Positions 4,979 to 36,387 of a stretch of 64,000 nt of DNA are shown here, one piece after another; positions within the stretch are counted from its first letter, which is position 1, and each line of letters begins with the position of its first letter. Origin of the DNA: Patescibacteria group bacterium (GTDB lineage: Bacteria; Patescibacteriota; Minisyncoccia; 2-02-FULL-40-12; GWA2-44-9). Under the pieces are notes generated by a model. It was not told where the DNA came from, made no database searches, and worked only from the letters and a program-made list of their open reading frames with translations. The position numbers and the translations under genes were made by a program. The stretch spans positions 18,249 to 82,248 of the forward strand of contig JBBTSY010000007.1 of NCBI GenBank assembly GCA_038064515.1, given 5' to 3'.

Positions 4979-4982
4979 TACT

Positions 4983-5780: not shown

Positions 5781-5784
5781 ATCT

Positions 5785-20680: not shown

Positions 20681-20788
20681 AATGGTTTAGCCTAGCATTT
20701 TTTTTTGCGATAAAAAAGAGTTTGACGATCACTTAAAACATGGTAGCATAGCCCTGGTTTCTTACGTTCTTCGACAATTTCGACAATC

Positions 20789-21721
20789 ATGAAAGAGGGG
20801 TGTTCATTGACAGTTCAGTATAGGCCCTACCTGGAGCGAACTCCTGACACTCAATATCAGGATTTGCTCCGTCGTGTGCGTACCGAAGGCATCTACACGA
20901 AAAACGAGTTCCAGACAAACGGGACCTACACCTCCGTCACGCTTCCCAAGATGATATTCCCGCTGGCCAACGGCGTTCCGCTCATCACCGAGCGGAAGTG
21001 CCCTTTTTGGCGTAAGCCGATTTCAGAGATCATCGCCTTCATCAATGGCGCCCGAACACTCAATCAACTCCGCCAATACGGAGACGAAAAGACGTGGGCG
21101 TCCTGGTGGGCAACCTGGGTTACCGCCCAGAAGTGCGCCGACTTCGGACTCGAGGAAGGAGATCTTGGTCCTGGCTCATATGGAGCCGCGTTCCACGATT
21201 TCCCCATGCCTGATAGAAGCACCTTCAACCAGTGGGAGCACCTAATCCGGGAGATCCATGATTTCCCATGGCTACGAACTCACAAGATCACCACGTGGAT
21301 CCCCTACTACGCCCTACAGCACAAAGGATTCAAACGCAAAGTCGTTGTGGCACCCTGCCACGGTGACGTGCAGGTGACCATCCTGAACAACCAGTTGTAC
21401 CTGCAGATGGATCAGCGGTCCTGCGATACCATCGTCGGCCTGCCCAGCAACCTGATCCAGTACGCGGCCGTCACCTTGATGGTGGCGCAAGTGACTGGCT
21501 ATGAGGCGCACACGTACGTGCACAACGTTCGCGACGGACAGATCTACGAGAACCAGCTGGACTGGTGCGACGAGCTCCTGAACCGGCCATCCAAGCCGTT
21601 CCCAACTCTCCGCATCATCGATCCGACTATCAACGATCTGTTCGCGTTCAGACCCGAGCATTTCGAGCTGACCGACTACGATGCTCATCCAGCCATGAAC
21701 GACATCCCGGTTACGACCTAA
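20789..21721 (+). CDS. Thymidylate synthase family protein (ThyA-like; catalytic Cys and uracil-specifying Asn conserved)
   Basis: 310 aa. APCHGD matches the ThyA APCH catalytic-Cys motif. DQRSCDTIVGLPSNLIQYAAVTLM matches ThyA [21 protein letters not shown]. G+C is visibly higher than the surrounding genome. An alternative TTG start at 20807 is preceded by an AAGAGGGG SD. Confidence 0.8.
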   Translation: MKEGCSLTVQYRPYLERTPDTQYQDLLRRVRTEGIYTKNEFQTNGTYTSVTLPKMIFPLANGVPLITERKCPFWRKPISEIIAFINGARTLNQLRQYGDEKTWASWWATWVTAQKCADFGLEEGDLGPGSYGAAFHDFPMPDRSTFNQWEHLIREIHDFPWLRTHKITTWIPYYALQHKGFKRKVVVAPCHGDVQVTILNNQLYLQMDQRSCDTIVGLPSNLIQYAAVTLMVAQVTGYEAHTYVHNVRDGQIYENQLDWCDELLNRPSKPFPTLRIIDPTINDLFAFRPEHFELTDYDAHPAMNDIPVTT

Positions 21722-21732
21722 GCGAGGGTACG

Positions 21733-22665
21733 ATGATAAATCTGATCGCAGCCGTTTCTCAAGACGGGTTCATCGCAAACCAGGATGGCAAGATCCCGTG
21801 GCATCTGAAAAGCGACATGGATCACTTCGTGGCACAGACGAATGGCCATCCGGTCATCATGGGAAGAAACACCTGGGAATCTCTTCTGCCCAAGTTCCGT
21901 CCCCTGCCGGGACGCAGGAACATCGTCGTGTCCCAACGACCCAACTTCACCGCCGATGGTGCTGAAGTTGTGTACTCTACCACTATGGCGCTGACGGTCA
22001 CTGATGACGACGAGGAAGTGTTTGTCATCGGCGGTGAACGGGTGTATCGCCACATGCTGGCGGAAGCCGAGCGCCTAATCATCACACGGGTCAACATGAC
22101 CGTAGGCACCGGTAGAGCCCGATTCCCGAACATCCATCCTGATGAGTGGAAACTCGTGTCGCAAACGCCAGGAGTGCGCACAGGAAAGGACGAATACGAC
22201 TTCGCCATTGAGGACTACACGCCGAACCTCGAGTTCATCGAGTTGGCCAACGTGCGCACACACAAACAGCTCAAGGAGTACCGTGTCATCCGCGAACAGG
22301 GTCACTGCCCGTTCTGCCAAGACAACCTGCCCCTGTACCACGACAATCCCATACTGCGTAAGGGAAAGTACTGGCTTCTGACCCAGAACGACTACCCGTA
22401 TGCGGGAACCGATGCCCACCTACTGCTCATCCTTCGTGAGCATGCGGAAAACTTCAGAGATCTTCTCCTTGAGGCGCAGCAGGAGCTCTTCATGTTCATC
22501 GCAGACATGGAGATGGAGGGAAAATTTCAAGGAGGCGGGCTCTGTGCCCGCGCTGGCGATCCGCTTCTCTCGGGAGCGAGCGTCAAGCACCTGCACTTCC
22601 ACCTGATTGCACCAACGAAAGGAGCACAGCCAACAGCGTTCTTTATGGGCAAGGGCAAACGTTAA
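21733..22665 (+). CDS. folA: Dihydrofolate reductase fused to a C-terminal HIT (histidine triad) domain
   Basis: The start was trimmed to ATG 21733, with a GAGGGT SD 5 nt upstream. The N-terminal approximately 165 aa is DHFR (MINLIAAVSQDGFIANQDGKIPWHLKSDMDHF...VIMGRNTWESL). The C-terminal approximately 130 aa is HIT-like, with a CPFC zinc motif and the histidine triad HLHFHLI. The gene is GC-rich like the neighbouring thyA-like gene. Confidence 0.8.
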   Translation: MINLIAAVSQDGFIANQDGKIPWHLKSDMDHFVAQTNGHPVIMGRNTWESLLPKFRPLPGRRNIVVSQRPNFTADGAEVVYSTTMALTVTDDDEEVFVIGGERVYRHMLAEAERLIITRVNMTVGTGRARFPNIHPDEWKLVSQTPGVRTGKDEYDFAIEDYTPNLEFIELANVRTHKQLKEYRVIREQGHCPFCQDNLPLYHDNPILRKGKYWLLTQNDYPYAGTDAHLLLILREHAENFRDLLLEAQQELFMFIADMEMEGKFQGGGLCARAGDPLLSGASVKHLHFHLIAPTKGAQPTAFFMGKGKR

Positions 22666-22717
22666 CTGTCCAGCCCGCCACGAGCCGTTCCGCGTTTAGC
22701 GGGCGGCTCGTTCTTCT

Positions 22718-23587
22718 TTAATTTTCTTTTACTCGGATGAGTTTGATGCCCGCGCTCCGTAAATTATGCTCAGCGCCTAGGTTAGAATAACCGTCAGCGT
22801 AATAAACTTTTTTGATGCCCGCTTGGATTATCGACAAGGCACACGTAGGACACGGAAATGTAGTTACATAAATAGAAGTACCCTCAAGAGAGATACCTTT
22901 TTGAGCCGCTCGAGCAATAAGTCCTGCTTCGCCATGGAGAGCCATATTCATATCCTTGAGTTGAGGATCTCCAGCATCGAAATTTCCACGAGGATCTCCA
23001 TCAATATATAGTGTGTTCTCGGTAGGCTTATGTTGATTATATCCTTCAAGGATTAGCTTGCCTTCTTTCACAATAACCGCGCCAACTTGCCGCCACCAGT
23101 CAGAGCTCTTTTGGGCATTACTTCGAGCTCTGCTTATAAACTCGCGGTCAAAGTCACTTTGAGAAATTTCATTGTCGAAGGTAACCGGAACAGCGGTGAC
23201 AGCCGCCATTTTATCCCATCGAAGAAATACGGGTTCAAACGCAACCGGTATATCAACACAATAGGATTCCGCGACCGCTCTCATGACTTCATCATTGGCG
23301 AATACTACTGCATCTGCTCTTTTTAAATCAGAAATGTTCTCCTTTTCGAGGAGCTTTATCACCGGAGCCAATGAAAGCGCTTTGCAAACAGAAACAACTT
23401 CTACTGGGCTCAACGCCCGTATATCACGCTCGAGAATGGTGACGTCCTTCAAGAAGCTACTGCCGAGAACGTAGAGAACGTCTGGCTGTATCTTTCGACA
23501 AAACTCTTGGTGCCCCTTGTGGACGACCGGAATGTACGCTGCTGCTATTTTCATTATTTTTTCCTCCAAGGAATTCGTTAATAACAA
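22718..23587 (-). CDS. Fusion protein: N-terminal HxGH nucleotidyltransferase-like domain (NMNAT/cytidylyltransferase-like) + C-terminal dCMP/cytidine deaminase domain
   Basis: The N-terminal domain shows IPVVHKGHQEF...VLYVLGSSF, an HxGH motif in NMNAT-like order. The C-terminal domain shows the zinc-binding HGEAGLI...PCPTCA, the CDA/dCMP-deaminase signature. The start is ambiguous (ATG at 23587 or 23554). Both candidate starts overlap the upstream gene. Confidence 0.7.
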   Translation of the reverse strand: MLLTNSLEEKIMKIAAAYIPVVHKGHQEFCRKIQPDVLYVLGSSFLKDVTILERDIRALSPVEVVSVCKALSLAPVIKLLEKENISDLKRADAVVFANDEVMRAVAESYCVDIPVAFEPVFLRWDKMAAVTAVPVTFDNEISQSDFDREFISRARSNAQKSSDWWRQVGAVIVKEGKLILEGYNQHKPTENTLYIDGDPRGNFDAGDPQLKDMNMALHGEAGLIARAAQKGISLEGTSIYVTTFPCPTCALSIIQAGIKKVYYADGYSNLGAEHNLRSAGIKLIRVKEN

Positions 23588-24152
23588 GATTTATTTTCAT
23601 TCCAAGCTGTTCCACCCCATCCATCATTAGTTGACGAAGCTTTGCTGTCGTAGTAGTTCCCGCTTGTGCCGGAAGCACTTTGATGTCGCCGCAGTATTGG
23701 AGTAAATTTTTCTTATCGCGATCGGTAAAATCCACGGTTGTTTGAGACATTACCAGTACATCGGGGCGTACAAGTTTTATGAGTTTGTACATATGGTCAT
23801 TTTCATGTCGAGGAGTAACGATATCGACTGCGGTAAGACTGGAAAGAATTTCAACGCGATCGTTAAATGTATCAAAGGGACGTTTTGGTCCTTTTCGTTT
23901 GCGGGTAAGCTCGTCCGTATCTACACCAACTATTAAAATATCTCCACTACTTTTTGCTTGTTCTAAATACCGTTTGTGCCCAACATGGAAAAGGTCATAG
24001 ACGCCCTGCGTGAGTACGATTTTGTACCCAGCATTCTTAAGTGTTTTAATGACTGCGGAAAGGGAAGCATAATCAGGAACATAGTGATGTTCCAATCCTG
24101 GAGTACGACTCACAATGTTCTTTACGATTTGTGAATTGGGCGAAGTGGGCAT
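23457..24152 (-). CDS. Cytidylyltransferase-family nucleotidyltransferase (TagD/RfaE-II-like HxGH enzyme) with low-complexity C-terminal extension
   Basis: The HIGH-type motif is GVYDLFHVGHKRYLEQAK. The TagD-like core runs to TTTAKLRQLM. An Asn/Ser/Arg-rich tail of about 45 aa overlaps the next gene by approximately 100-130 nt in another frame. Confidence 0.75.
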   Translation of the reverse strand: MPTSPNSQIVKNIVSRTPGLEHHYVPDYASLSAVIKTLKNAGYKIVLTQGVYDLFHVGHKRYLEQAKSSGDILIVGVDTDELTRKRKGPKRPFDTFNDRVEILSSLTAVDIVTPRHENDHMYKLIKLVRPDVLVMSQTTVDFTDRDKKNLLQYCGDIKVLPAQAGTTTTAKLRQLMMDGVEQLGMKINLVINEFLGGKNNENSSSVHSGRPQGAPRVLSKDTARRSLRSRQ

Positions 24153-24409
24153 ATGAATAAGTTTAAAATACCATACCCCATACCAATGTACAATTCAAGC
24201 AAAAAAACCACAACTGTTCGTGGCTTTTAGCTATTTTACCTCGATGCCCATATATCGCGCTGTACCCTCAATGAAAACACTGTCAGACATTTTCGCCTTG
24301 GAGGATGTTCTTGTTTGAAGAGCTCCCTCCAAGACGAATATAGCATACTTTACTACCTACATTATAACGCACCCTTAACAGTAAAGCAAATCAAGGGTAT
24401 GGATAACCC

Positions 24410-24571
24410 TTAACGCTTCTTTTTACCCTCTTTTTCCCTCATATAAACAGCATAAGCCCATACTCTGCTAATATTGAATATTTCAGCTAGCTTACTGAAG
24501 GAATATTTTTTAGGGTCTTTGTCTCGAAGTTCAACCAACCTCTTGTTTATCTCTAATTTCGGCTTAGACAT
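24410..24571 (-). CDS. Tiny sigma-70 region-4-like HTH protein (approximately 53 aa), paralog of 26701..26928
   Basis: The internal ATG at 24571 gives MSKPKLEINKRLVELRDKDPKKYSFSKLAEIFNISRVWAYAVYMREKEGKKKR. It aligns with the other small protein (…TLKESGKMFNISPERVRQIIARVLYEL). The longer ORF 24410..24841 upstream of this ATG only translates the repeat DNA. Confidence 0.4.
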   Translation of the reverse strand: MSKPKLEINKRLVELRDKDPKKYSFSKLAEIFNISRVWAYAVYMREKEGKKKR

Positions 24572-24608
24572 TACCCCTATTATAGCATTTACCCCTAACG
24601 ATTCAAAC

Positions 24609-25649
24609 TTATAATTTCCCGTTTGCATGGCCATTTTTGGCGATATAAACAATCCCATTTCCAGGTGGCTTTGCATGGCCATTAGCATCTCCGTTTCCAT
24701 TCGCATGCCCGTTTGCATGGCCATTTCCATTACCAGGAACAGGGGGCTTAACTTCTTTCTGATCCATCTTGTTGCGATATAACTCTTCTCTATCATTTCC
24801 AAAGAGTTGCGTATAAATAAAAGAACTTTGACTATTAGCATGCCCGAGTAGCGATGCTATACCATATGCATTCGTATCCTTGCGAGCCAATTCACGACCA
24901 AAGTGATGTCGACAGGAGTGAGGGTTTAAGGGAATAGCCAAACCTGCCTTGTTAGAATATTTCCTTAAAATCTCTGAGATGAAATTTACCTGTAATATCT
25001 TGCCCTTACCAGGGCAGTTTTTATATCCTCCTTTAATTCCAAAAAAGAGTATTTTGGGGTCAGCTAAGGGAATCTCCTGCGCTAACTCCTCCCTTTTAAT
25101 TAACCACTCGGCAAGAGCTTGATTAGCTTCCTCTCTCCAGAAGATTTCACGATAAGGCACAGTCCCTCTTGATTTCTCTGTCTTAATCCTTGCTGACATA
25201 CGATTCAGATCAATATCCTCTAACCGAAGCGATGCTATCTCGCCGTTACGAGCTCCGCTCTCCCATAATAAAGTTATAATCGCTTTATTACGAACATGGG
25301 TATAACCTTTAAAATCCGAACCAGTCCCGTGATCAGGTATTACAGCAAGGAGTTTTCGGTACTCTTCTTCGGTAGCAACTCGTGGAAATTTAAATGTTTT
25401 TCTGGGTATCGGAATAAGATCGGGATTAAAGACTTTTACGTCTCTATCTTTCAAGAAATCAAAGAGCAACTTTAAGGCAATAGCTTTTTTCTGAACAGCC
25501 TCAAATGCTTTGCAGAATAAATTTTCCGTAGCTCGATATGCAAGATAAGGCTCCGGTGCTTCTGAAAAAAGTTTTGAGAGCGAGCCAATAGCCTTAAGTA
25601 GTCGCTCGTAATACTGCACCTGTTCTTTTGTCTGCGTTTCTATGAACAT
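24609..25649 (-). CDS. Tyrosine site-specific recombinase/integrase (XerC/D-like) with C-terminal Gly/Asn/His repeat tail
   Basis: 346 aa. The catalytic region has LLGHANSQSSFIYTQLF (catalytic Tyr), HSCRHHFG and the R...E core (LWESGARNGEIASLRLEDIDL). The C-terminal approximately 45 aa, GNGNGHANGHANGNGDANGHAKPPGNG..., is encoded by tandem DNA repeats. Confidence 0.85.
   Translation of the reverse strand: MFIETQTKEQVQYYERLLKAIGSLSKLFSEAPEPYLAYRATENLFCKAFEAVQKKAIALKLLFDFLKDRDVKVFNPDLIPIPRKTFKFPRVATEEEYRKLLAVIPDHGTGSDFKGYTHVRNKAIITLLWESGARNGEIASLRLEDIDLNRMSARIKTEKSRGTVPYREIFWREEANQALAEWLIKREELAQEIPLADPKILFFGIKGGYKNCPGKGKILQVNFISEILRKYSNKAGLAIPLNPHSCRHHFGRELARKDTNAYGIASLLGHANSQSSFIYTQLFGNDREELYRNKMDQKEVKPPVPGNGNGHANGHANGNGDANGHAKPPGNGIVYIAKNGHANGKL
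24615..24735. repeat. Imperfect tandem repeats (3 copies of a TTTGCATGGCCAT-containing unit, 42-48 bp period) encoding the integrase tail
   Basis: TTTGCATGGCCAT occurs at approximately 24622, 24670 and 24712, with related TTTCCAT/GCATGCCC sub-units. Both reading frames give repetitive peptides (GHANG... or MAMQTG...). Confidence 0.7.
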
Positions 25650-26607
25650 CGTTAGATTTTGTTTCTAAAGCCTTCTTAATCTGGCGGGCTACCCGTGAGA
25701 TCACGGAGACTGTGACCGAATTTCCAAACTGCTTATAAAGCTTGGTGTCTGGAAGGTCTTTTGGAAGCTTATAGGTTTCCGGAAATCCTTGCAACCTTGC
25801 GCATTCCCTAGGAGTAAGTTTTCTAACGCCCTTATAATCTTTAATTAACGGCACATTGTGCCCTCCTGTCCCCATATTGGCAGTAAGTGTCGGACAAACC
25901 CCGCTCTTATTCTCGCGAACATAAGCTCTTCGCCACTGATATACAGTGCCTTTTGACTGCATTGCTTCCCTCAGTTGTCCATAGAGAGGATGCTTATTAT
26001 AGTAATATCTCTCATCAACGTTTTCGTCAAGAATGTCGGAAACTGTTTTATCAAGAGAAAGCGATTCTGGAAATTCAAATGCGTCGAATTGCTGTTTGGA
26101 TTTGAATCCAACAATATAAATTCTCTCTCTATTTTGAGGAACATTCCCATATTTCGCGCTATTTAAAACCTCGGCTTTTACATGATAGCCCAAATCCGAA
26201 AGCGCTTCAGAAATAATTTTAAAAGTTTTGCCATTATCATGGGATTTAAGATTTTTTACGTTTTCTAGAAAAACTGCTTTCGGCTTTTTATCTCTAAGGA
26301 TTCTAACTATTTAAAAAAATAAATCCCCCCTGCCGGTATCAAGAAACCCTCTTCGGTATCCAGCGATTGAGAAGGGTTGGCACGGAAATCCACCGAGAAG
26401 AATATCAAAATTCGGCAAGTCAGAACTCTTAACTTTTGAAATATCCGCAACAGTAAGCGGAGTTCCCTTAAAGTTGAGATCATAGGTCGGCTTGCAATAC
26501 GGATCAAAGTCATTGGCAAAAACAGTCTCAAATCCGGCTCTTTTAAAGCCTATTCTTATGCCTCCAATTCCTGCAAACAAATCAATGGTTTTGAGTGAAT
26601 TGCTCAT
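25594..26607 (-). pseudogene. C5-cytosine DNA methyltransferase (Dcm-like) interrupted by a single in-frame TAA (26313..26311)
   Basis: The N-terminal ORF 26311..26607 has motif I DLFAGIGG and motif IV GFPCQPFS. It ends ...RGDLFF*. The same frame continues directly as IVRILRDKKPKAVFLENVKNL... (motif VI ENV), then the target-recognition and C-terminal motifs (RKLTPRECARLQGFP, YKQFGNSVTV). The stop sits where a Glu is expected in the LFFEivR motif. Confidence 0.75.
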
Positions 26608-26700
26608 ATTTAAATCATAACAAGATTACCCATAAAAAGCAGCCTCGTTTTTATAAGCTTATCCACATTCTACCTCGAAAGGCTCGGTTTGTCTGCCTTT

Positions 26701-26928
26701 TTACTTAATTAACTTTTCCAATTCATAAAGAACTCTGGCTATAATCTGCCTGACTCTTTCCGGACTGATATTAAACATCTTTCCACTTTCCTTGAGGGTA
26801 TGGGGCTTATCATCTATTCCATGACGAAATTCAAATATCCTTATATACCTGGGCTTGAGATTAAGACGATTTCTGACCTTTTTATACTGTTCGATCATTA
26901 AAAATTTTTCGAAAGCCCAAGTAATCAA
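26701..26928 (-). CDS. Small sigma-70 region-4-like HTH protein (75 aa)
   Basis: RYIRIFEFRHGIDDKPHTLKESGKMFNISPERVRQIIARVLYEL resembles the sigma70 region 4.2 HTH, which binds the -35 element. No region 2 or 3 is present. It is the last gene of the MoxR/VWA operon strand. Confidence 0.5.
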   Translation of the reverse strand: MITWAFEKFLMIEQYKKVRNRLNLKPRYIRIFEFRHGIDDKPHTLKESGKMFNISPERVRQIIARVLYELEKLIK

Positions 26929-27020
26929 TCAAGTACCAAGGCTCCAAGTTCCCAAGTCCCCGATGAAACTACCGAGCGGGGCAGACGCCGAGAGTGGAAT
27001 CCGAGTTGCCACGCGAATCG
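26897..27020. repeat. 124-bp direct repeat copy 1 (3' end of paralog A + 3'UTR CCAAG array); identical to 29589..29712
   Basis: Exact nucleotide identity by inspection. Similarity continues with a few mismatches for approximately 65 bp into the coding region. Confidence 0.85.
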
Positions 27021-27907
27021 TAGTCGACGTGGAGACCGCCCGAATCGAAGCCACCAGCGCAGACGAAGCTGCCGTCGGACGACTGCACGGCTGACCAATC
27101 CCATGTTCTTTCTAAGAGAGACTCCTTATTAGCACCGTAATATGTAATGGTATCATAAACTACCTCAGTAGGAGTTCTTCTTCGTACAGAATTCGGATCT
27201 ATTCCATTTTTCTTAGCCCATTCTTTAAGAACCTCTTCTTGCTGGTCCCAATTTTTACTAAGAGATTCCGGTAAAACTGCTTTAGCGGCCAAACCCCAGC
27301 CTAATTTAGTAGTATCTTCTAAAGAAAACTTTTCCTTGTCATGCCAAGCCTCGCCTTTTTTATAATAAAATATTTTATTCTTTTTCTTTGTAGGATCCCC
27401 GAGCTTATCTTCGCCCTGCATTACCTCCCGCATCCTGTCTATGCTTAAAGGTTTTCCTTCCTTATCATGAGGAACTCGAAGCACCAGCATCATACCCAGG
27501 GCTTTTGCCTGTTCTAATTCTTCCCTGCTGAAAGGTATATTTTCTATTTGGCTTGCTTCTTCAGGCGTTAATTTAATGCCCCAGGTTTTTTCAACTGCCT
27601 CCGGACCAATAAAATCTTTTTCCAATATTTCCCTAGCTTCTCTGAAATCTAAACGGGCCTCCGGAGAAGCAAGTTTTTCCAATTGCTGAAGCTTTTCAAG
27701 CGCTTGGCCTAAATCATTATTAGCAAAAGCTTCTTGAACTCCTTTTGCCAACTCAATAGATTTTACTTTTAGCTCGGCCTCTTCACGCTCTTGCTGTTCT
27801 CTTTCTTCAATCTCTCTTTGAGCCGAATCTTTTTCCTTCTTTTTGCCAGCACTTTTGGATTGTTCGCCTTTCCAAAAAGCTTCAAATTGTGGTTTCTCGG
27901 ACGACAT
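26969..27907 (-). CDS. Hypothetical protein, paralog A (312 aa) with conserved approximately 40-aa Cys-containing C-terminal module
   Basis: Charged coiled-coil-like N-terminus. The central region is shared with paralog B (…KNWDQQEEVLKEWAKKNGIDP…). The C-terminus is VQSSDGSFVCAGGFDSGGLHVDYDSRGNSDSTLGVCPAR. The gene lies 3 nt downstream of the MoxR gene. Confidence 0.6.
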   Translation of the reverse strand: MSSEKPQFEAFWKGEQSKSAGKKKEKDSAQREIEEREQQEREEAELKVKSIELAKGVQEAFANNDLGQALEKLQQLEKLASPEARLDFREAREILEKDFIGPEAVEKTWGIKLTPEEASQIENIPFSREELEQAKALGMMLVLRVPHDKEGKPLSIDRMREVMQGEDKLGDPTKKKNKIFYYKKGEAWHDKEKFSLEDTTKLGWGLAAKAVLPESLSKNWDQQEEVLKEWAKKNGIDPNSVRRRTPTEVVYDTITYYGANKESLLERTWDWSAVQSSDGSFVCAGGFDSGGLHVDYDSRGNSDSTLGVCPAR

Positions 27908-27909
27908 AA

Positions 27910-29562
27910 TTATAATTCGGAGATAAGTGTAGCTAAATAAGTACGCTCTTCTCCTAGTGGAATTTTAGGAAGCACAACCTCTTGAACTGCCTTTTTAGCC
28001 TTGGTCATACCCCTTCTCTTTTCTTCTTCAGTAATAACCATGGCCGGCAATTCGTAAGCGCACTCAACAGATTCACGCAAGCTAAAAACGAATTTAATCG
28101 GTTCATCAGATTTGCCTTCATGGTACGCCCTATAAGCTCCCCTGATTTTATTTGCAATTTCAGCCACTTCCTTTATATCCTCAATCTGTTCTTTTACGGA
28201 AGCAGTAAGCAAATCAGCTACTTTGGGGTTTGCCTTATTATTGGCTACCGCATCCCAAAGCATTTGGAATTCTTCAGGAGTAAAATCTTTAAGATCGGGG
28301 ACATACTGGCGCAAGATTAAAGCCTCGTCCGATCTGAATTCGATTTTATCATTCGGACCTTTTCTTTCCTTCTCAAATGGAGGGTATGTGACCTCCATGA
28401 TTCGGGCTCGAGATTTGATCGTTTCCGCTAATGGTTTTACGCCCATATAGTGCTGTGGGTTTTCCAATCCTACCAATAAAACTTCTTCTGCGGCTTTTAC
28501 TATATTCTTATCTTCTCCTAAATATATAGCGCGGTCATGGTCAAATAAAGAATTGAGAATCTTCGCAACTTCCGGTTTAAGGGTATTGATTTCGTCAAAT
28601 TCGAGAATAGCACCTGGCGTTTCAAGAGCTTCTATAACCGTAGACTTGATTCTGTAGGTTCCCCGCTTGGAATCATACTCAAGAAGATACTTAAAGTCCT
28701 GTTCATCCTTTCCTGCAGAACAAGTAAATCTAAATAACGGCCTCTGGGTTAAATAGGCAAAGTGATCAATAATTTTATTCTTTCCAGTACCGGCATCGCC
28801 TTCCAATATAACAATACCCTGACCGCGCTCACGCTGGCGATTAACTAATTTAGTAAATTTCTCCATTGTCTCAACCACATGCGGAGTCTCAACAAAGTTT
28901 GGATCACGGCTAAGGACATCTTTAGCTCCTTCGGTAGCTAAACCATTAAGATGCCTCAAGGCTCTGAGCACCCATTCTGAATCAGGATGTTTTTCTTTTA
29001 ACTCTTCGAAATAGTGCTTGGCCGATTCTTGTTTTTCCGGATCATCGCTGGAAAGATTCTGTACGGCCTCTAAATATCCTGACCTCTCTTTCTTTAATGC
29101 CTTATAATCGCTCAGGGGTAGATATCTGTCCTTTTCTCCAAATCTTACCTTGCCCTGCGAATTGCCTCCTGGCTTAATCTCTACGCCGTCATTCCTTTTA
29201 AAGGATATCTCTACCATGGTTTGGCCTTGTTCTCGAAACTGTTCACCTTCTACATCCCAAAGAAGTTTCTCTCCTTTCGGCTCAAAGACTGGTGTAGATT
29301 CTTGGCCGATGCGCACTTCCTTAGCTCCTTCAATGGGCACGATCTTTTCTTTTTGCTTTGCGTGCACCTCCAAAAACTCTGAAACCTCCTGGGTCTTGCC
29401 CTCAACATCAACCTGCTTAAGAAGTTCCTTTGCTTCCTCCGGTATTTTGCCGGATTTTAAAAGCTCGGCCTTAATCGCCTCAATTCTCTCAAGACGGTCC
29501 ATGTCGTCTGGACGAAAGGCTTTAAATGATTCGACTGATGGCATAGGAATTCGTTCTTTCAT
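27910..29562 (-). CDS. MoxR-type AAA+ ATPase (AAA_5/CbbQ/RavA-like) with long N-terminal extension
   Basis: 550 aa. Walker A-like GDAGTGKN is present, with Asn where Ser/Thr is usual. Walker B is ILEFDEIN. The sensor/arginine region is VGLENPQHYMGVKPLAETIKSR, typical of the MoxR family. The N-terminal approximately 250 aa is charged and of unknown fold. Confidence 0.85.
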   Translation of the reverse strand: MKERIPMPSVESFKAFRPDDMDRLERIEAIKAELLKSGKIPEEAKELLKQVDVEGKTQEVSEFLEVHAKQKEKIVPIEGAKEVRIGQESTPVFEPKGEKLLWDVEGEQFREQGQTMVEISFKRNDGVEIKPGGNSQGKVRFGEKDRYLPLSDYKALKKERSGYLEAVQNLSSDDPEKQESAKHYFEELKEKHPDSEWVLRALRHLNGLATEGAKDVLSRDPNFVETPHVVETMEKFTKLVNRQRERGQGIVILEGDAGTGKNKIIDHFAYLTQRPLFRFTCSAGKDEQDFKYLLEYDSKRGTYRIKSTVIEALETPGAILEFDEINTLKPEVAKILNSLFDHDRAIYLGEDKNIVKAAEEVLLVGLENPQHYMGVKPLAETIKSRARIMEVTYPPFEKERKGPNDKIEFRSDEALILRQYVPDLKDFTPEEFQMLWDAVANNKANPKVADLLTASVKEQIEDIKEVAEIANKIRGAYRAYHEGKSDEPIKFVFSLRESVECAYELPAMVITEEEKRRGMTKAKKAVQEVVLPKIPLGEERTYLATLISEL

Positions 29563-29588
29563 AATTTATTTATTTTTTACGATTATTT

Positions 29589-29712
29589 ATTAAAAATTTT
29601 TCGAAAGCCCAAGTAATCAATCAAGTACCAAGGCTCCAAGTTCCCAAGTCCCCGATGAAACTACCGAGCGGGGCAGACGCCGAGAGTGGAATCCGAGTTG
29701 CCACGCGAATCG
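29589..29712. repeat. 124-bp direct repeat copy 2 (3' end of paralog B + 3'UTR)
   Basis: Identical to 26897..27020. Confidence 0.85.
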
Positions 29713-30740
29713 CGGTCGACGCCGAGACCGTCCGAATCGAAGGCACCAGCGCAGACGAAGCTGCCGCCGGACGACTCTGTTTTCGACCAATCGTAATCCC
29801 TTTCTAGTAAACGTGCTTTCCTGGCTTCGTAATAAGCCAGGACATCATAGATTGTTTCAATCGCCTTTCTCCTGCTTACAAACTTGGGGTCGACCTTGTG
29901 TTCCTTCGCCCACTCCTTCAATACTTCTTCCTGCTCATCCCAATTTTTATCCCTAGTTTCTTCAAGAAGCTCTTTCTTGACAATACTCCAGGCAAGCTCT
30001 ATTACTTCTTCAGTAGCAAACTTCTCCTCATCATACCAGTCCTGGTCATAAAATAAAGGAAACTTTTTTCTTAAATTCGCAATAGTTCCCATCGCTTCTT
30101 TACCTTCAAGCATTACTTTAGGCGATCGCAAGACAACCATAAAACCCTCCTTCTTTAACTGTTCAAGAGATTCTTTTGTCAGTCCCTGCTGGCGAACTTT
30201 TTCTCTCCACTTTTCAGAAATTAATCTAAGCTCTTCCTGATTAAATTTACGACCACTGAATTTTTCAGCCTCTTCAATTCCTAAAAAGTCTTCCTTAAAG
30301 ATTTCCTTCAACTCTTTAAGCTCTCTGACTTCTCCCATCTCCGGAGTAATCTGGTTCTGTATTTTCTCAAGAATTGCTAAAGCTCCTGGAATATCGTCTT
30401 TCGCAAAAAGTTCTTGAGCCTCTTTAGCTAATTCTGTAATTTGTCTTTCCTGTTCCTGGCCAAGGGTAATTTCTACAATCATCTTGCCTTGCATTGAATC
30501 TCCTGGCTTCGAATCTTCAACTATGCGAACCCTATACGCTCTCCCTGCTTCCGGAACTTGGGAAGACTGGCTAAGTATAATTATTTTTCTGTCGGGAGAG
30601 CTGTTGCGATATTCTATTGTCCCATCTTTCTTGCTAACCTCCGAAAATACAATATCTTCCAGAATTTTCTCCTGTGGTTCAGTTTCCAGCCTTTTCTCTG
30701 GTTTTTGGCCTATTTCGGGCCTAAATTGTGGTTTTTCCAT
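29661..30740 (-). CDS. Hypothetical protein, paralog B (approximately 359 aa from ATG 30740) with the same C-terminal module
   Basis: The start was trimmed to MEKPQFRPEIGQ, which parallels paralog A's MSSEKPQFEAFW. The C-terminus is ESSGGSFVCAGAFDSDGLGVDRDSRGNSDSTLGVCPAR. The last approximately 50 nt of coding sequence plus approximately 75 nt of 3'UTR are identical to paralog A at the DNA level. Confidence 0.6.
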   Translation of the reverse strand: MEKPQFRPEIGQKPEKRLETEPQEKILEDIVFSEVSKKDGTIEYRNSSPDRKIIILSQSSQVPEAGRAYRVRIVEDSKPGDSMQGKMIVEITLGQEQERQITELAKEAQELFAKDDIPGALAILEKIQNQITPEMGEVRELKELKEIFKEDFLGIEEAEKFSGRKFNQEELRLISEKWREKVRQQGLTKESLEQLKKEGFMVVLRSPKVMLEGKEAMGTIANLRKKFPLFYDQDWYDEEKFATEEVIELAWSIVKKELLEETRDKNWDEQEEVLKEWAKEHKVDPKFVSRRKAIETIYDVLAYYEARKARLLERDYDWSKTESSGGSFVCAGAFDSDGLGVDRDSRGNSDSTLGVCPAR

Positions 30741-30907
30741 GGTGGTATTGACAAGTTGTATATATTTTGCTATAATGGCTATAGAAACTTTAACAAGTCG
30801 GGGAGGAGCGGTTAGCCACACCGTAACCTCCAAAAAGGAGATCCGGCCCACCTTGTCCTAGCCACGGACGAGGAGCCACCCAGCCTCTATTAAAAATAGG
30901 GACTTTT

Positions 30908-33067
30908 TTATTTGCTCTCCGACCTTTCAAATTTCTGCAACTGCTTCTCTAAAATTTTTAATAACGATTGGGGCAGTTTCTGAATATCTGGAACTGGCAG
31001 TCCATTTTTATCATAATACTGTTTTATGGTTCTTTCCATACCTGGTCCAATACCTATTCCAATCAAAGGAATCTGTTTCGTCCATTTTCTAACTATTTCA
31101 CGCAACTCCCATTCTGATCCCGCATGGCGCGAACTTGGCGCCGGCTGTCCGTCAGAAAATACAATTAAGGCACCCGAAGCATCATTCTCTAATAATCTTT
31201 TCTGGAGACGTCTTGCCGCGCTGTCTACTGCAAAGCCATCGTCATTATATTGGGCACCCGATGACTTTACTTCTTTAAGCACCCTCATAATCTCCAATTT
31301 CTTTTTGCCAAAGTAGTTCTCATCAAATCCCTTGAGCTCGAGGAGTTGGGCATGAAAAGCCAATATTTCAAAAGGTACCCCTTTTTGTGAAAATGCCTCG
31401 GCCATTAAAATAGCTGCCTTCAATGCTTCCTGAATTTTTTCTCCATCCATGCTTCCGCTTACATCAACTAGCAGAGAAAAGGCAACGGCTTTAACCTCCG
31501 GTACATCTTTACGCTCAAAAAATCTGCCTTCTTGAGTGGGAATTTCCCTGGCAAGCTTTCGCGGATCAATTCTTTTACCGCGCCTATACCCGCCCTCCCA
31601 TTCCGCTTCTTCTTGAGGAGGGAAGACCTCATCGAGACGCTCAACAAGCATGCCGACATATTTTTTAATCTGAGAGTAATAAGCGTCATAGCGCTCCCTC
31701 TCCTCTTTAGTGAGGCCCGTCATTCTTTCTTTAAGATTTTCCTGAGTTGCTTCTAAATTCTTTTGAACTTCGCTCTTCGCTTGCTGGATTTGCTCTTGGC
31801 GCTTCTTCTCTCTTTCCTGGTATTCTTTCTCTTCCTCCAATGCCTGCTCAATATCCTCCTGGGTCACCATCTGAACCTGAATCTCCATGGTACCATCTTC
31901 ATTTTCTTTCATTTCAACCGATTTCGGCTGAAGCTGTTTGGTAAACTCTCTTTCTTCCTCGTCAAGTTTTTCTCGAGCTTTCTGCCTATATTGGTCCTTC
32001 TCTTCATCAGAAAGTTCGTCCCAATTTTTTTGACCGCCTTCTTTCTGCTTGCCGGCCTCCTCTTGTTTTTCTTGAGGCTCGCCTTTTCCTTCCTGATCTT
32101 CCTGTTTCTCTTTTTGGCTTTGATCCTGCTCTCCCTCCTCTTCTTTAGATTCTTGTTTTTGCTGTTCCTGGCCTTGACCGCCTTGCTGCTGTTGCTTATC
32201 TTGGGCATGCTGTTTCTGAGCTTCTTCCTCAATGTATTTATCAATTAATTCTTTAAATACTGGCCAGCCCTTTTCCCACATAACTTCTTTAAATGCTCTT
32301 CTACCCTTTGATTCATTAAGATATTCATCAAGCACTCCTTCAGTCTCCCCAAAAGCCTTTAATACTTTCTCGTCCTTGATCTTTGATTTCATTTCTTCAA
32401 AATCAAAATCTTCTATGAACGGCTCTGCTCCTTTTGCCCAGCAAAGAAGGCCGTACTGAATAGGCAAAGATTTCTTTTCAAAGTCATGCAATAAAGCCTG
32501 GGCGATATCTTCTTTTAAATATGCTCCCAAGCGGTGACGTGCCGTTCTGGATGTCTGGCCTTCCTGATTATTCGATCTGCCATCTTCCCAAGCATCGTAA
32601 ATTGTAAAAAGGTCTAACGGTTTATAGCCTTCCTGCTTGGCCAATTCTTGAGATTCCAATAGAGACTGATAATCGGAATGTTTGATATGGCCCATCTCAT
32701 GACGAAAAACTCCAAAGATATAATCTTCACTTCTTTCCAACAAATCTTGCTCCGGATAAGTCATGACCTCAGGTACTAGCAGTTTTTCATCAAAATCTTC
32801 CAAGCTTTTTTCTGGATGTTTTCTCCTCTCCTCTTCAAATTTCTTTGAAAGTCCAGCAGCCCAGCCCTGACCAGGAATAAGATTCAAGTTAAAGTTCTTG
32901 GAAAGATTTTTAGTCACGAACCGCAACTTATCTTTTAGCTCCTGAATTTCGTGAGGGCTTCTTTTCCTCCCCGCCTCCGGCTTCTCTGACATAGGATGAA
33001 AAGCAGACTCTAATTCAGGTCTTTCGTGCTGAGACTTAGGTTGTGGCTCAAAAGACTCTTTGCTCAT
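30908..33067 (-). CDS. HExxH metallopeptidase-like N-domain + Gln/Glu/Lys-rich linker + C-terminal von Willebrand factor A domain protein (DUF2201-like MoxR partner)
   Basis: 719 aa. RHEMGH lies at residues approximately 122-127 (coordinates approximately 32687-32704). A long QQQGGQGQEQQKQESKEEEGEQ... low-complexity coiled-coil region follows. The VWA domain has the MIDAS motif DVSGSM plus downstream FSDG. This is the first gene of the operon. The architecture is the kind that is normally paired with MoxR AAA+ ATPases. Confidence 0.8.
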   Translation of the reverse strand: MSKESFEPQPKSQHERPELESAFHPMSEKPEAGRKRSPHEIQELKDKLRFVTKNLSKNFNLNLIPGQGWAAGLSKKFEEERRKHPEKSLEDFDEKLLVPEVMTYPEQDLLERSEDYIFGVFRHEMGHIKHSDYQSLLESQELAKQEGYKPLDLFTIYDAWEDGRSNNQEGQTSRTARHRLGAYLKEDIAQALLHDFEKKSLPIQYGLLCWAKGAEPFIEDFDFEEMKSKIKDEKVLKAFGETEGVLDEYLNESKGRRAFKEVMWEKGWPVFKELIDKYIEEEAQKQHAQDKQQQQGGQGQEQQKQESKEEEGEQDQSQKEKQEDQEGKGEPQEKQEEAGKQKEGGQKNWDELSDEEKDQYRQKAREKLDEEEREFTKQLQPKSVEMKENEDGTMEIQVQMVTQEDIEQALEEEKEYQEREKKRQEQIQQAKSEVQKNLEATQENLKERMTGLTKEERERYDAYYSQIKKYVGMLVERLDEVFPPQEEAEWEGGYRRGKRIDPRKLAREIPTQEGRFFERKDVPEVKAVAFSLLVDVSGSMDGEKIQEALKAAILMAEAFSQKGVPFEILAFHAQLLELKGFDENYFGKKKLEIMRVLKEVKSSGAQYNDDGFAVDSAARRLQKRLLENDASGALIVFSDGQPAPSSRHAGSEWELREIVRKWTKQIPLIGIGIGPGMERTIKQYYDKNGLPVPDIQKLPQSLLKILEKQLQKFERSESK

Positions 33068-33384
33068 TTAGGTATTGGGATTATATAAGTTCATTCTAAG
33101 TGTTAAGGGTATAAAAAGCAAACTTGCCTATCGGCTCATTTTCTGCAATAATGGTGGCGAGTCTTGTTAATAGAGATTAGGCTAAGGTTTAATCTTATGG
33201 GTCTCCTTTATTCATTCCTCACCAGAGTTCTTATGGCTACGGCTATAAGAAGTGGCGTGACCGGATATCGTAAGAGAGATGAAACTACGTGTTTTGTTTC
33301 AGTGTAGGTACTCCAGATTCGCATCGGGAGTTGCTACCAAGTAAAATTCAGGAGATGTTTCCTTTTTGAAACTATCCAGTGGCC

Positions 33385-33537
33385 ATGAGGCGATTACAGA
33401 GGGGACAAAACACCAAGGTGCAGTCGTCCGACGGCAACTTCGTCTACGCTGGTAACTTCGATTCGGACGGTCTCAACGTCAACAACGATTCGCGTGACAA
33501 CTCGAATTCCAATCTCGGCGTCTGCCCCGCTCGGTAG
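33385..33537 (+). CDS. Orphan small ORF (50 aa) consisting essentially of the conserved C-terminal module; inverted relative to the paralogs
   Basis: MRRLQRGQNTKVQSSDGNFVYAGNFDSDGLNVNNDSRDNSNSNLGVCPAR*. The last 52 nt match the paralog 3' ends with about 3 mismatches on the opposite strand. The hairpin AAGAGCCTTC-caaat-GAAGGCTCTT follows the stop at approximately 33560-33585. It is too short for the ORF track. Confidence 0.35.
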   Translation: MRRLQRGQNTKVQSSDGNFVYAGNFDSDGLNVNNDSRDNSNSNLGVCPAR

Positions 33538-33792
33538 TATTATCTATCTTCCTCTGCTAAGAGCCTTCCAAATGAAGGCTCTTAGTTTAATCCCGACTGG
33601 ATTTAATCCAGCCCCCAAGCATTTTACCGATTTCTTGGATATAGCCCTGACAGTAAATATAACGCTTCTCGTTTAAAATCTTTAAATCCGATAAAAGCCT
33701 TATAAATACCTTGAGCATATCCACTTTCTAGGGTTATAATCTGCCGATATAAGCTCTTTAATTTTTACTTGGGTTATTTGCATAAATATAGG

Positions 33793-33814
33793 TTATCCAC
33801 TTTTTTATCCACAA
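33793..33814. promoter_or_regulatory. Pair of DnaA-box-like 9-mers (TTATCCACT, TTATCCACA) in an AT-rich 300-bp noncoding stretch
   Basis: TTATCCACA is the consensus DnaA box. The two boxes are 13 nt apart and adjacent to the 3' end of a replication-organizer-like gene. Confidence 0.35.
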
Positions 33815-33856
33815 AGTTATCTAATAATAATTTCTCTTTGTTTCTCTAATACATTG

Positions 33857-34282
33857 TCAGTACGGAAGCCGTACCGCTTTTGGTCTAGTTTCCCTACCAA
33901 TTCTGGTATGTTTTCTGTACTGGTTCACTTTCCGTACTACCTCGTCCGCGACCATGGAAAGATTGATTTCATAGCAGTTGCCACGGAAGTCTTTTCGGAC
34001 CAGAATCGCTCCGGCCTTTGTAAGATTCGAAAGCGATTCGCTGACTACCGATCGCGACAATCCCGCGCCAAAGTCCAGGATTTTTCCATCCCTTGTCTTA
34101 ATGCCTTTCATAAATTGAGTGAAGCTGATCCGGTCCACCTGCTTGTGAAATCCGAACGTGCGCCGGCAGATATACAGAAGGCATTTGCCCTCGCCTTCCG
34201 GTATTAGAGGCAGAATCTTATCCAAAATAAGGTTGGGTATCTGAGTGCTATTGGGTATAAGATGTCTGTTTTCCTCTGGCAT
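33857..34282 (-). CDS. Phage/plasmid-type replication organizer-like winged-helix protein
   Basis: 141 aa. LLYICRRTFGFHKQVDRISFTQFMKGIKTRDGKILDFGAGLSRSVVSESLSNLTKAGAILVRKD resembles the N-terminal wH DNA-binding domain of phage replisome organizer/DnaD-like proteins. It was preferred over the overlapping + strand ORF 33854..34207. Confidence 0.5.
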   Translation of the reverse strand: MPEENRHLIPNSTQIPNLILDKILPLIPEGEGKCLLYICRRTFGFHKQVDRISFTQFMKGIKTRDGKILDFGAGLSRSVVSESLSNLTKAGAILVRKDFRGNCYEINLSMVADEVVRKVNQYRKHTRIGRETRPKAVRLPY

Positions 34283-34388
34283 GGTTTAAGCGCAATTGGG
34301 ACTAACTTTCGTTAGTCTTTGTTGCTATTAGACAGCTTTCCATTCCTGCCCCTCATGCTCTCGCGGTGAGGAACAGGATCGAAAGCCG

Positions 34389-34622
34389 TTAGCTGATGAT
34401 GTTAATTAACCTCTCGTTCTCCAGGAATGATTCGGATTTCAGAAGGTAATCCCCGTCATAGATATTGTTGTACTCAATATCGTATTCGTAGATTGCCGCC
34501 TTCTCGAAGTTTTCAATCGCCTCCATGATCTCGTCCATGGTTGGTGCTGATGCCAACTCTTCTTCCTGATCAGTTCCTGTAAATGCCACGTACCACTTAT
34601 CGGTTCGCGTGGACCTGGCCAT
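34389..34622 (-). CDS. Hypothetical small acidic protein (77 aa)
   Basis: ORF only. It lies between the AAA_24 gene and the replication organizer on the same strand. Confidence 0.3.
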   Translation of the reverse strand: MARSTRTDKWYVAFTGTDQEEELASAPTMDEIMEAIENFEKAAIYEYDIEYNNIYDGDYLLKSESFLENERLINIIS

Positions 34623-35739: not shown

Positions 35740-35901
35740 TGCCAGAGAATATTTGCTAAAGTAACTTTAAGTTTGTGAAACGTCCCGAAAGGGCCGTTTT
35801 GCTTTTTATTCTCTGAGTTCATAGTTTTTAGTAATTCGCATCGGTGGGTTTGTTTTTTACCCAATATCGCTGGGTTACGTTCGACCTAAGGCGAAAACGA
35901 A

Positions 35902-35935
35902 AAACACCGTGTTTTGACGGTGTTTTCATTGTTTT
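35902..35935 (-). terminator. Rho-independent terminator downstream of rplK
   Basis: On the minus strand, AAACACCG-tcaaaaca-CGGTGTTT is followed by TTCGTTTTCG. Confidence 0.5.
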
Positions 35936-35964
35936 ACTGGGTTTTTGCGAGTTCGTGGGGCCTT

Positions 35965-36387
35965 TTACTCTACGCTAATCCCCATGGAACGCGCGGTGCC
36001 CTCGACGATCTTCATCGCGGCGTCGACGTCATTGGCGTTCAGATCAACCATCTTTTTCTCGGCGATTTCCCGAACCTGAACTTTAGTGACCGTGCCAACT
36101 TTTTTCTTGTTTGGTTCGCCGGAACCTTTTTCAATCCCTGCGGCAACGCGCAAAAGGTATGCCACTGGAGGAGTCTTGAGCTTGAATTCGAATGTACGAT
36201 CTTCAAAGATCGTGATTTCAATAGGCGTCACTTCGCCCATCTTGTCTTTGGTTGCCTCATTAAACTGCTGGACAAATTGCTGAAGATTAATGCCGTGAGG
36301 ACCCAGGGCGGTACCAACCGGTGGCGCCGGTGTTGCTCGGCCGCCTTCGATCTGTAATTTTACCACTGCTTTTATTTTTTTTGCCAT
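35965..36387 (-). CDS. rplK: 50S ribosomal protein uL11
   Basis: 140 aa. The N-terminus is [34 protein letters not shown]. Confidence 0.95.

Follow-up and report, generated by a model that had tools for sequence, protein, structure and literature searches.

A thyA-folA::hit operon in a Patescibacteria genome and the association of its HIT module with thymidylate genes

In a stretch of 64,000 nucleotides from a Patescibacteria group bacterium (contig JBBTSY010000007.1 of assembly GCA_038064515.1, hereafter the window) a gene for thymidylate synthase, thyA, is followed on the + strand by a gene in which dihydrofolate reductase (DHFR) is fused to a HIT domain. The first-pass annotation of this DNA had read the two genes as a GC-rich islet that was acquired horizontally, possibly from a phage. 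The locus raises the questions of what a HIT enzyme does in the company of DHFR and ThyA and whether the pair is foreign to the genome in which it resides. We consider it likely that the region is a thyA-folA::hit operon of a Parcubacteria/Paceibacteria-type Patescibacteria genome. Both genes are ordinary for this lineage and are already annotated: the encoded proteins are identical to MEK7589445.1 (thymidylate synthase) and MEK7589446.1 (dihydrofolate reductase) of NCBI, which come from a Patescibacteria group bacterium metagenome-assembled genome (MAG).

The DHFR-HIT protein and the gene block of the HIT subfamily

The fusion gene, folA::hit, extends from 21733 to 22665 and codes for 310 amino acids (aa). 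Its ATG is 12 nt past the thyA stop codon with a GAGGG ribosome-binding site in the gap; the mechanical open reading frame (ORF) opens at GTG 21565, inside thyA, but ATG 21733 is the true start, on which all homologues agree. The DHFR domain, residues 1-162 (21733 to 22218), matches PF00186 with an E-value of 1.4e-45 and 155.3 bits (cut-off 25) and is under the cut-off of the NCBIfam equivalog NF008037 (116.5 and 168, respectively). The zinc-HIT module, residues 167-310 (22231 to 22665), consists of an N-terminal helix followed by the part that bears the CPFC and HLHFHLI motifs, and PF01230 matches residues 225-295 with an E-value of 1.9e-6 and 28.9 bits (gathering cut-off 21.5). The two are joined without a linker. 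The earlier proposal that a complete DHFR is fused to a HIT domain is therefore borne out by the matches to both families.

Full-length DHFR-HIT proteins were found in 53 clusters that range in identity from 92% down to 32%. In 50 aligned fusions the invariant residues of the DHFR half are A7, D28, F32, T36, M43, G44, T47, R61, G100, G101, and T118, where D28 is the catalytic Asp, and judging from these residues the DHFR half appears to be catalytically complete. It has been reported that the folA genes of other bacteria of the candidate phyla radiation (CPR) complement E. coli ΔfolA, and no HIT domain is mentioned in that report (PMC11974145). In the HIT half, C192, C195, W214, H237, R273, H286, and H288 are invariant in the same 50 fusions; H288 would be the nucleophilic middle His, and C192, C195, H237, and H286 would form the usual zinc site. 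The AlphaFold2 (AF2) model of the HIT half has a pLDDT of 94.9, and its best Foldseek matches were Hint proteins and the M. tuberculosis Ap4A phosphorylase Rv2613c with TM scores of 0.5-0.6, identities of 17-25%, and a probability of 1.0. When the HIT profile was compared to PDB sequences, Hint-like proteins were matched at 1e-8, Fhit at 1e-6, and GalT at 1e-4. Unlike GalT, the module has one domain only; it keeps the Ser/Thr that precedes the triad, and the third triad position in the window protein is His. With the nucleophile His and the zinc ligands invariant and the fold supported by the model, the HIT module looks active.

To see where else this module occurs, a profile of the HIT half was searched against 1.84 billion cluster representatives, of which 292 were matched at E<1e-30, and the best 150 were classified. 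DHFR and HIT are fused in 50 of these 150, one is a fusion of HIT and ThyA, and the remaining 99 are HIT alone. The HIT-only proteins are mostly 145-160 aa long and carry the whole module including the N-terminal helix, and the HIT-ThyA fusion is a protein of 464 aa from a Paceibacterota MAG that is named thymidylate synthase. The DHFR-HIT fusion had earlier been called a non-standard architecture. This holds in so far as no description of it was found in any studied organism, and our literature search turned up no paper describing the DHFR-HIT architecture; within the Patescibacteria lineage, however, it is common. Of 149 scored motifs of the subfamily, 112 have His and 37 have Gln as the third triad residue, and Gln at this position is the variant of GalT-type transferases and phosphorylases.

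Downstream of folA::hit and convergent with it on the - strand lie a long-form dCMP deaminase gene (22718 to 23554) and a cytidylyltransferase-like gene, referred to here as ctp (23457 to 24152; GCT/RfaE-domain-II-like). This arrangement is not peculiar to the window. The HIT gene was inside a block of thyA and hit, with or without folA, together with the deaminase-ctp (dcd-ctp) pair in all five stand-alone genes that were sampled, in the HIT-ThyA fusion, and in all 18 close matches among GTDB species representatives, which belong to Jorgensen-, Uhr-, and Taylorbacteria, Paceibacterota, WWE3, and other lineages. A scan of the genome collection with alignment A13 and two peptide patterns gave 46 loci, which are a sample and not a census. 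The block, or that part of it retained by the contig, was present in 34 of the 34 related loci mapped with sequence, and ctp adjoins the deaminase gene in 32 of the 32 loci that reach that far and, by the listed gene order, in one further locus. The order within the block varies: thyA is followed by folA::hit, or by separate folA and hit, or by hit with folA past ctp, or hit precedes thyA, either as a separate gene or fused to it, and some loci carry two hit genes. In unfused relatives folA and hit overlap by 11-41 nt, and in four loci (L011, L013, L021, and L032) folA is not adjacent. Since hit occurs by itself, behind folA, or before thyA, the fusion in the window can be explained as the joining of two neighboring operon genes. 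Read as a Rosetta-stone signal, these arrangements would link HIT to the thymidylate pathway, and to the block rather than to DHFR itself.

A simpler explanation is that HIT is a general housekeeping enzyme, either a Hint phosphoramidase or an Ap4A hydrolase/phosphorylase, that happens to share an operon with thyA and folA, became fused by the chance loss of a stop codon, and has no specific role in dTMP synthesis. The closest sequence and structure matches are indeed generic Hint, Fhit, and Ap4A phosphorylase proteins, the stand-alone members are annotated in their sources as 'ATP adenylyltransferase' or 'Ap4A HIT hydrolase', and small genomes put unrelated genes into operons. However, the association persists in every one of the 34 sequence-mapped loci despite extensive shuffling of the gene order, and the module has two different fusion partners, DHFR and ThyA, which are both enzymes of the thymidylate cycle. 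Because constant association and two such fusion partners are a classic sign of functional coupling to this cycle, we regard such a housekeeping enzyme as unlikely, although it deserves to be kept in mind. It is also conceivable that HIT is a dimerizing scaffold that places DHFR beside the ThyA dimer, a non-covalent analogue of the protozoan DHFR-TS in which catalysis is secondary or lost. It is well established that HIT proteins are obligate dimers and so is ThyA, and the module is fused to either DHFR or ThyA. A scaffold would not account for a nucleophile His and zinc ligands that are invariant in 50 of 50 aligned fusions, and HIT is encoded by itself in many genomes, with folA lying apart in the four loci mentioned above; we think this role very unlikely. 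That HIT substitutes for dUTPase or thymidylate kinase was considered and rejected as L013 has both of these within a few genes of the block. A dUTPase gene is also near the block in L009 and L015, and a gene with a thymidylate kinase domain is near it in L014. In L009, which is the genome with the HIT-ThyA fusion, genes of the dUTPase family and of DUF1599 (4760-5864) lie directly upstream and extend the pyrimidine deoxynucleotide cluster.

A divergent protein of the ThyA family

The thyA gene was listed as a 310-aa ORF of the ThyA family from 20789 to 21721 on the + strand. Its start is probably TTG 20807 rather than ATG 20789 because a Shine-Dalgarno-like AGAGGGG is 7 nt upstream of the former and the homologue in L001, which is 92% identical, is called at 304 aa. 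The protein matches PF00303 with an E-value of 2.5e-54 and 184.7 bits (cut-off 24.3). With TIGR03284 it scores 140.7 bits, which is over the cut-off of 108.35, whereas E. coli ThyA scores 455 and gp42 of T4, a dCMP hydroxymethylase, 30.6; it is below the narrower PRK01827 equivalog cut-offs, for example 160 against 327. It is 33% identical to E. coli ThyA and 19% identical to T4 gp42, and thus the divergence from model ThyAs that had been noticed at the outset is real. The best 120 homologues are 48-92% identical, and those that are named are nearly all from CPR/Patescibacteria and are called thymidylate synthase; their lineages include Jorgensen-, Zambryski-, and Pacebacteria, Minisyncoccia, and Parcubacteria, and one is labelled as a Thermoplasmatota archaeon. 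By these measures the protein appears to be a divergent yet typical member of a Patescibacteria ThyA clade.

The motifs APCHGD, LPSNL, and DLGPGSYGAAFHDF are all present. In the alignment with E. coli ThyA, whose numbering is used here, the protein keeps C146, H147, E58, W80, W83, Y94, Q165, R166, S167, D169, N177, Y209, and the C-terminal tail, and the catalytic set is invariant or nearly so across the CPR clade. The catalytic Cys and the Asn that had been recognized in APCHGD and LPSNL are thus C146 and N177, and by the alignment ThyA retains the residues for covalent catalysis on dUMP. There is an N-terminal extension of about 19 aa and an insert of about 13 aa past W83. Four positions are substituted in the window protein, namely R21 by F, R127 by T, H207 by Q, and F176 by S, with the clade having F or Y at position 21. 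Two of the four arginines that bind the phosphate of dUMP (R21, R126', R127', and R166) are therefore missing, and this, together with the replacement of H207 and F176, counts against the assignment as a working thymidylate synthase. R21 and R127 (R179 of L. casei) tolerate substitution, however, so that these changes are compatible with activity. We infer that ThyA acts on dUMP and folate and produces dihydrofolate, because it is constantly paired with DHFR.

It had also been suggested that the genes could form a hydroxymethyl-dUMP module, in which the ThyA-like protein would be a dUMP hydroxymethylase, and one may widen this to some other enzyme that modifies pyrimidines at C5. The low TIGR03284 score relative to that of E. 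coli ThyA (140.7 and 455 bits), the four replaced residues, and the extra segments would fit such an enzyme. The score nevertheless exceeds a curated cut-off that T4 gp42, at 30.6 bits and 19% identity, does not approach, although it must be added that gp42, which is of the dCMP type, was the sole hydroxymethylase compared. The protein retains Asn177, Tyr94, Glu58, and its C-terminal tail, whereas the hydroxymethylase traits, which are Asp at 177 for dCMP and a missing C-terminal tail, are not seen. The clade is named thymidylate synthase across many Patescibacteria lineages and so looks like a housekeeping gene, and the linked and co-transcribed DHFR makes sense only if dihydrofolate is produced. 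Hence the hydroxymethylase suggestion is not borne out and we consider it, like any other non-ThyA activity, highly improbable. PHROGs could not be used to discriminate between the two enzymes as phrog_160 matches E. coli ThyA and T4 gp42 alike.

Inheritance and base composition of the operon

Whether the operon is foreign was examined by gene order and by protein identity. The order dnaE-thrS-(nudix)-miaA-gatB-thyA-folA::hit, followed by the convergent deaminase-ctp pair and then by rplK-nusG-gyrB, is shared by the window, L001, L002 (a Jorgensenbacteria MAG), and L006, and L016 shows the upstream part of it as far as its contig extends. L001 and the window are 92% identical in nucleotide sequence over the whole block. 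The protein identities to the window in L001, L006, and L002, in this order, are 95, 73, and 46% for ThrS, 94, 69, and 52% for GatB, 92, 76, and 67% for ThyA, 92, 63, and 52% for DHFR-HIT, 95, 70, and 59% for the deaminase, and 98, 76, and 70% for ctp. When the window, L006, and L016 are compared with each other, the identities for the pairs window-L006, window-L016, and L006-L016 are 69, 62, and 65% for GatB, 62, 70, and 60% for MiaA, and 76, 75, and 72% for ThyA. ThyA is therefore not discordant since the three are about equidistant in all three proteins. A discordance was at first hinted by ThrS, which is 49% identical between the window and L016 where ThyA is 75% identical, but this was rejected because it is the L016 ThrS that is aberrant while GatB and MiaA agree with ThyA. 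The L016 ThrS gene (2977-4713) may itself have been replaced or be fast-evolving, given the 62-75% identity of GatB, MiaA, and ThyA. Taken together, gene order and identities indicate that the thyA-folA::hit block has been inherited vertically with its housekeeping neighbors.

The higher G+C content of the two genes relative to their flanks, on which the proposal of horizontal acquisition was based, was confirmed. The G+C content is 0.557 for thyA and 0.556 for folA::hit compared to 0.452 for the whole window, and the G+C content at third codon positions (GC3) is 0.720 (z = +3.0) and 0.675 (z = +2.4), respectively, relative to 34 other ORFs outside obvious islands with a mean of 0.496 and a standard deviation of 0.076. 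GC1 and GC2 are ordinary in both genes, and one other ORF alone in the window reaches an equally high GC3. The edges are sharp: GC3 is 0.52 in gatB upstream and 0.41 and 0.35 in the deaminase gene and ctp downstream. The same excess is kept in relatives at 63-92% protein identity. In L001, GC3 is 0.74-0.75 in thyA and 0.64 in folA::hit with flanks at 0.51, and in L006 it is 0.79 in thyA, 0.79 in the DHFR part, and 0.73 in the HIT part with flanks at 0.52. Being common to both, the excess is older than the split between L001 and L006. L016 is GC-richer over the entire locus, so that a thyA GC3 of 0.71 is normal there, and GC3 of the operon stays at about 0.7-0.8 throughout the clade despite differing genome backgrounds. 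A general ThyA-specific bias in GC3 was tried as an explanation and rejected as thyA, folA, and hit follow their flanks across 27 loci (mean difference +0.06, +0.03, and +0.02, respectively) and the sign is opposite in L003. The GC excess is thus real, confined to the operon, and clade-specific, and we take it as fitting long-term maintenance or retention better than recent transfer. The sharp boundaries, on the other hand, would be equally expected if a GC-richer relative within the phylum had long ago donated a copy that took the place of the operon, and this has to be set against our explanation.

The proposal that the operon is an acquired islet, possibly phage-derived, by which a thymidylate or hydroxymethyl-dUMP module was added to the genome, can now be weighed. 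It is favored by GC3 values of 0.72 and 0.675, where about 0.50 is usual, and by their sharp edges, by a groundwater study in which thyA was flagged as transferred into Patescibacteria (PMC12455944), and by a genuine mobile element only 1.6 kb away. That element, however, is GC-poor and is without thyA and folA::hit. Moreover, relatives with identities as low as 51% and lower still have the same genes in the same order and place, the divergence tracks that of GatB and MiaA, the GC excess predates the L001/L006 split, and the thyA of L016 has an equal GC3 that is normal for its genome. As for a phage source, the best phage ThyA is 33% identical, well below the 48-92% of CPR homologues, and viral HIT structures resemble the module at the level of the generic fold only. 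Neither horizontal acquisition nor phage origin is therefore upheld; as far as gene order and identities tell, a recent or phage-derived acquisition appears to be excluded, and we consider an acquired islet of any kind quite unlikely. What had been named beforehand as speaking against an islet was a ThyA that clusters within canonical bacterial ThyA, a DHFR-HIT architecture common in the lineage, and a typical composition. The first two hold, with the ThyA belonging to the lineage-typical clade, whereas the composition is atypical, though in this sub-lineage only.

The operon ends in a hairpin at 22680 to 22711 on the + strand with a U-rich tail, which lies within the 52-nt gap that separates the convergent stop codons of folA::hit and the deaminase gene. 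It has 13 pairs and a predicted energy of -24.2 kcal/mol (z = -3.8), and none of 200 shuffles folded equally well. The hairpin that had been predicted here is thus real, but its bidirectionality is not supported, because the - strand folds less stably (z = -2.25) and lacks a U tract. Upstream, a promoter-like site (TTGACG, 16 nt, TG-TAGCAT) is at 20722 to 20749 on the + strand, between gatB and thyA; the evidence for it is weak since four such sites were found around this gap where 3.8 were expected from shuffles. An Rfam search upstream of thyA gave no riboswitch or other RNA.

The mobile element referred to above is an integrative element of 11.7 kb (24270-35976) at the 3' end of rplK. It is absent from L001, has an imperfect repeat of about 45 nt on either side, and is GC-poor at 0.38-0.46. 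It codes for a tyrosine integrase (24609-25649), a C5 DNA methylase split over two ORFs (25594-26193 and 26311-26607), an AAA_5 ATPase (27910-29562), a VWA/CobT_C protein (30908-33067), and an AAA_24 protein (34597-35739). The integrase ORF terminates in a Gly/Asn/His/Ala-rich repeat (GNGNGHANGHANGNGDANGHA), and it is overlapped, on its own strand, by a further ORF (24410-24841) in which the same repeat is translated in another frame. Elsewhere in the window, an ATP-grasp, D-Ala-D-Ala-ligase-like ORF (39675-40685) has the highest GC3 of all (0.739). It is 77% identical in nucleotide sequence to its L001 counterpart, which is at a different position, while the neighboring DNA is 86-92% identical, and as a case of replacement or rearrangement it is more convincing than the thyA operon. 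There is also a low-GC island (53287-59566) with a G+C content of 0.33-0.38, a GC3 of about 0.3, and six ORFs of 195-560 aa.

The deaminase-ctp pair and a possible role for HIT

What the HIT module might act on is suggested by the two genes across from the operon. The deaminase domain, PF00383, is at residues 147-264 of a 289-aa ORF that opens at TTG 23587 (E-value 8.7e-19, 67.8 bits, cut-off 25). The zinc motifs HGEAG (H-x-E) and PCPTC (P-C-x-x-C) are present, and the score against the ComEB equivalog is 62, under its cut-off of 219. At least 120 homologue clusters were found, most of about 275 aa and some called shorter, and those named by lineage are all Patescibacteria. An anti-phage dCTP deaminase, which would match over its full length with a kinase-like domain at the N-terminus, was considered and rejected as only the deaminase core matches defence-system models (75.9 against 400 for NF041025; positions 438-502 of 630 for the PADLOC dCTPase). 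In front of the core is an extra domain of about 140 aa for which the AF2 model, with a pLDDT of 83, gives a five-stranded Rossmann-like fold; the top Foldseek matches were HldC, 3glv, and TagD (E about 1e-3, TM 0.50-0.56). In this domain His12, which follows the first strand, is invariant, as are F110, R112, and W113 of a near-invariant F-L-R-W motif. The model suggests that the domain has a cytidylyltransferase-like nucleotidyltransferase fold, as is also predicted for ctp.

The ctp protein itself meets the cut-off of PF01467 (E-value 6.1e-15, 56 bits) and stays under those of the named families (110 against 181.5 for TIGR02199 and 55 against 165 for TagD). Its best matches among PDB profiles are ECT (3elb, 1.5e-25) and HldC (5x9q, 1.8e-24), and it carries the motifs FHVGH (HxGH) and GTTTTAKLR (RTxGISTT-like). 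About 98 nt (23457-23554) are shared by the 3' end of ctp and the 5' end of the deaminase gene, and this overlap with its out-of-frame tail is kept in L001, L002, and L006, whereas L003 and L004 have a usual overlap of 4 nt. In four more distant HIT loci, L035 (2923-3953), L055 (2832-3923), L036, and L038, ctp and then hit form a two-gene cassette on the same strand. Where examined, the flanks of this cassette are unrelated (PdaC/BacA in L035 and SMC/L10 in L055) with no thymidylate genes nearby. The occurrence of this cassette elsewhere and the cytidylyltransferase-like domain on the deaminase suggest that the ctp and HIT enzymes act on the same nucleotide conjugate.

A working scheme would be as follows. 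The deaminase would convert dCMP to dUMP, ThyA would methylate dUMP with methylene-tetrahydrofolate to give dTMP and dihydrofolate, and the DHFR half would reduce the dihydrofolate to tetrahydrofolate. The HIT module would act via a nucleotidyl-His288 intermediate that a Cys2His2 zinc site holds in place, and it may best be taken for a nucleotidyl hydrolase or phosphorylase that supplies dCMP or dUMP jointly with ctp. It probably cleaves a conjugate of a nucleoside monophosphate (NMP-X) to give a pyrimidine (deoxy)nucleoside mono- or diphosphate, the most plausible conjugate being the product of the neighboring ctp enzyme. Stated broadly, the HIT subfamily, ctp, and the N-terminal domain of the deaminase could together constitute an unrecognized step of pyrimidine deoxynucleotide metabolism, so far mainly in Patescibacteria, that belongs with the deaminase, ThyA, and DHFR to one linked module of dTMP synthesis; we put this forward as a tentative and rather improbable proposal. 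One form that it could take is the formation of (d)CDP-X from (d)CTP by ctp, which HIT would resolve to dCMP or dCDP to feed the deaminase. This route is speculative, and we hold it unlikely though worth stating.

Several observations weigh against this scheme. The solved structures nearest to the HIT subfamily are only 17-25% identical to it. The fold of the deaminase N-terminal domain rests on Foldseek E-values of about 1e-3; a profile comparison (hhalign) with ctp gave a probability of 0.8%, which is no signal, and against PDB sequences the domain had no significant match. No precedent for a two-step route to dCMP by a cytidylyltransferase and a HIT enzyme was found in the literature, and a simple pyrophosphatase would convert (d)CTP to dCMP equally well.

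Known systems offer partial parallels. The nearest comparison for the enzymes is ECT, which has two tandem cytidylyltransferase domains (3elb), together with HldC and TagD. The ctp protein matches these at E-values from 1e-14 to 1e-25, the deaminase N-terminal domain has the same predicted fold, and a catalytic and a degenerate domain are paired in a way reminiscent of the ECT pseudo-dimer, but here each domain has a polypeptide of its own, one of them fused to a dCMP deaminase, and ctp is under all named-family cut-offs. With ecHinT (3n1s), an Entamoeba protein (3oxk), Fhit, and Rv2613c (3ano), the HIT module shares the fold, the HxHxHxx triad with its nucleophilic middle His, and the Cys-x-x-Cys/His zinc site. 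It differs from them in its 17-25% identity, an extra conserved N-terminal helix, the invariant Arg273 and Trp214, Gln at the third triad position in a quarter of the subfamily, and, for close members, a context that is exclusively the thymidylate block. The bifunctional DHFR-TS of protozoa and plants is likewise a fusion of thymidylate-cycle enzymes that keeps the production and reduction of dihydrofolate together, and one relative here has HIT-ThyA; unlike in DHFR-TS, DHFR is joined to HIT, ThyA is a separate upstream gene, and there is no sign of channelling.

As in bacterial thyA-folA operons and in the dNTP set of T4 (td, frd, cd, and the gene 56 dCTPase/dUTPase), ThyA, DHFR, and dCMP deaminase are encoded together, and the logic of T4 would add to these three an enzyme that turns the triphosphate into dCMP or dUMP. 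The core block here, in contrast to T4, is without an enzyme of the dUTPase or MazG family and has the HIT and cytidylyltransferase-like pair in that place, and its sequences are at most 33% identical to those of phages. In humans, a step from dCTP to dCMP by DCTPP1 is reported to feed the dCMP deaminase DCTD and dTTP synthesis (PMC7162842). DCTPP1 is an all-alpha MazG-like pyrophosphatase that has no homologue here, and the analogy is functional and hypothetical. T4 gene 56 and DCTPP1 may thus serve as precedents for the logic of the route but not for its enzymes.

These results also bear on annotation. The fusion is named just 'dihydrofolate reductase' and the long-form deaminase 'deaminase' with its extra domain unmentioned, and our literature search found no description of the strict embedding of this HIT subfamily in a thymidylate block or of a cytidylyltransferase-like domain on the deaminase. 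Core metabolism that is inherited vertically can show up as a sharp GC3 island, and composition-based calls of horizontal gene transfer in these genomes, including those for thyA, need to be checked by synteny. To our knowledge, Patescibacteria are without de novo nucleotide synthesis, and the few nucleotide enzymes that they keep show what cannot be scavenged from the host. The source of dCMP for dCMP deaminase is, as far as we know, poorly defined even in well-studied organisms, and the block of thyA, folA, and hit with the deaminase-ctp pair is a concrete candidate for it. A HIT protein that is tied to thyA marks an uncharacterized component of thymidylate supply across a large part of the bacterial tree.

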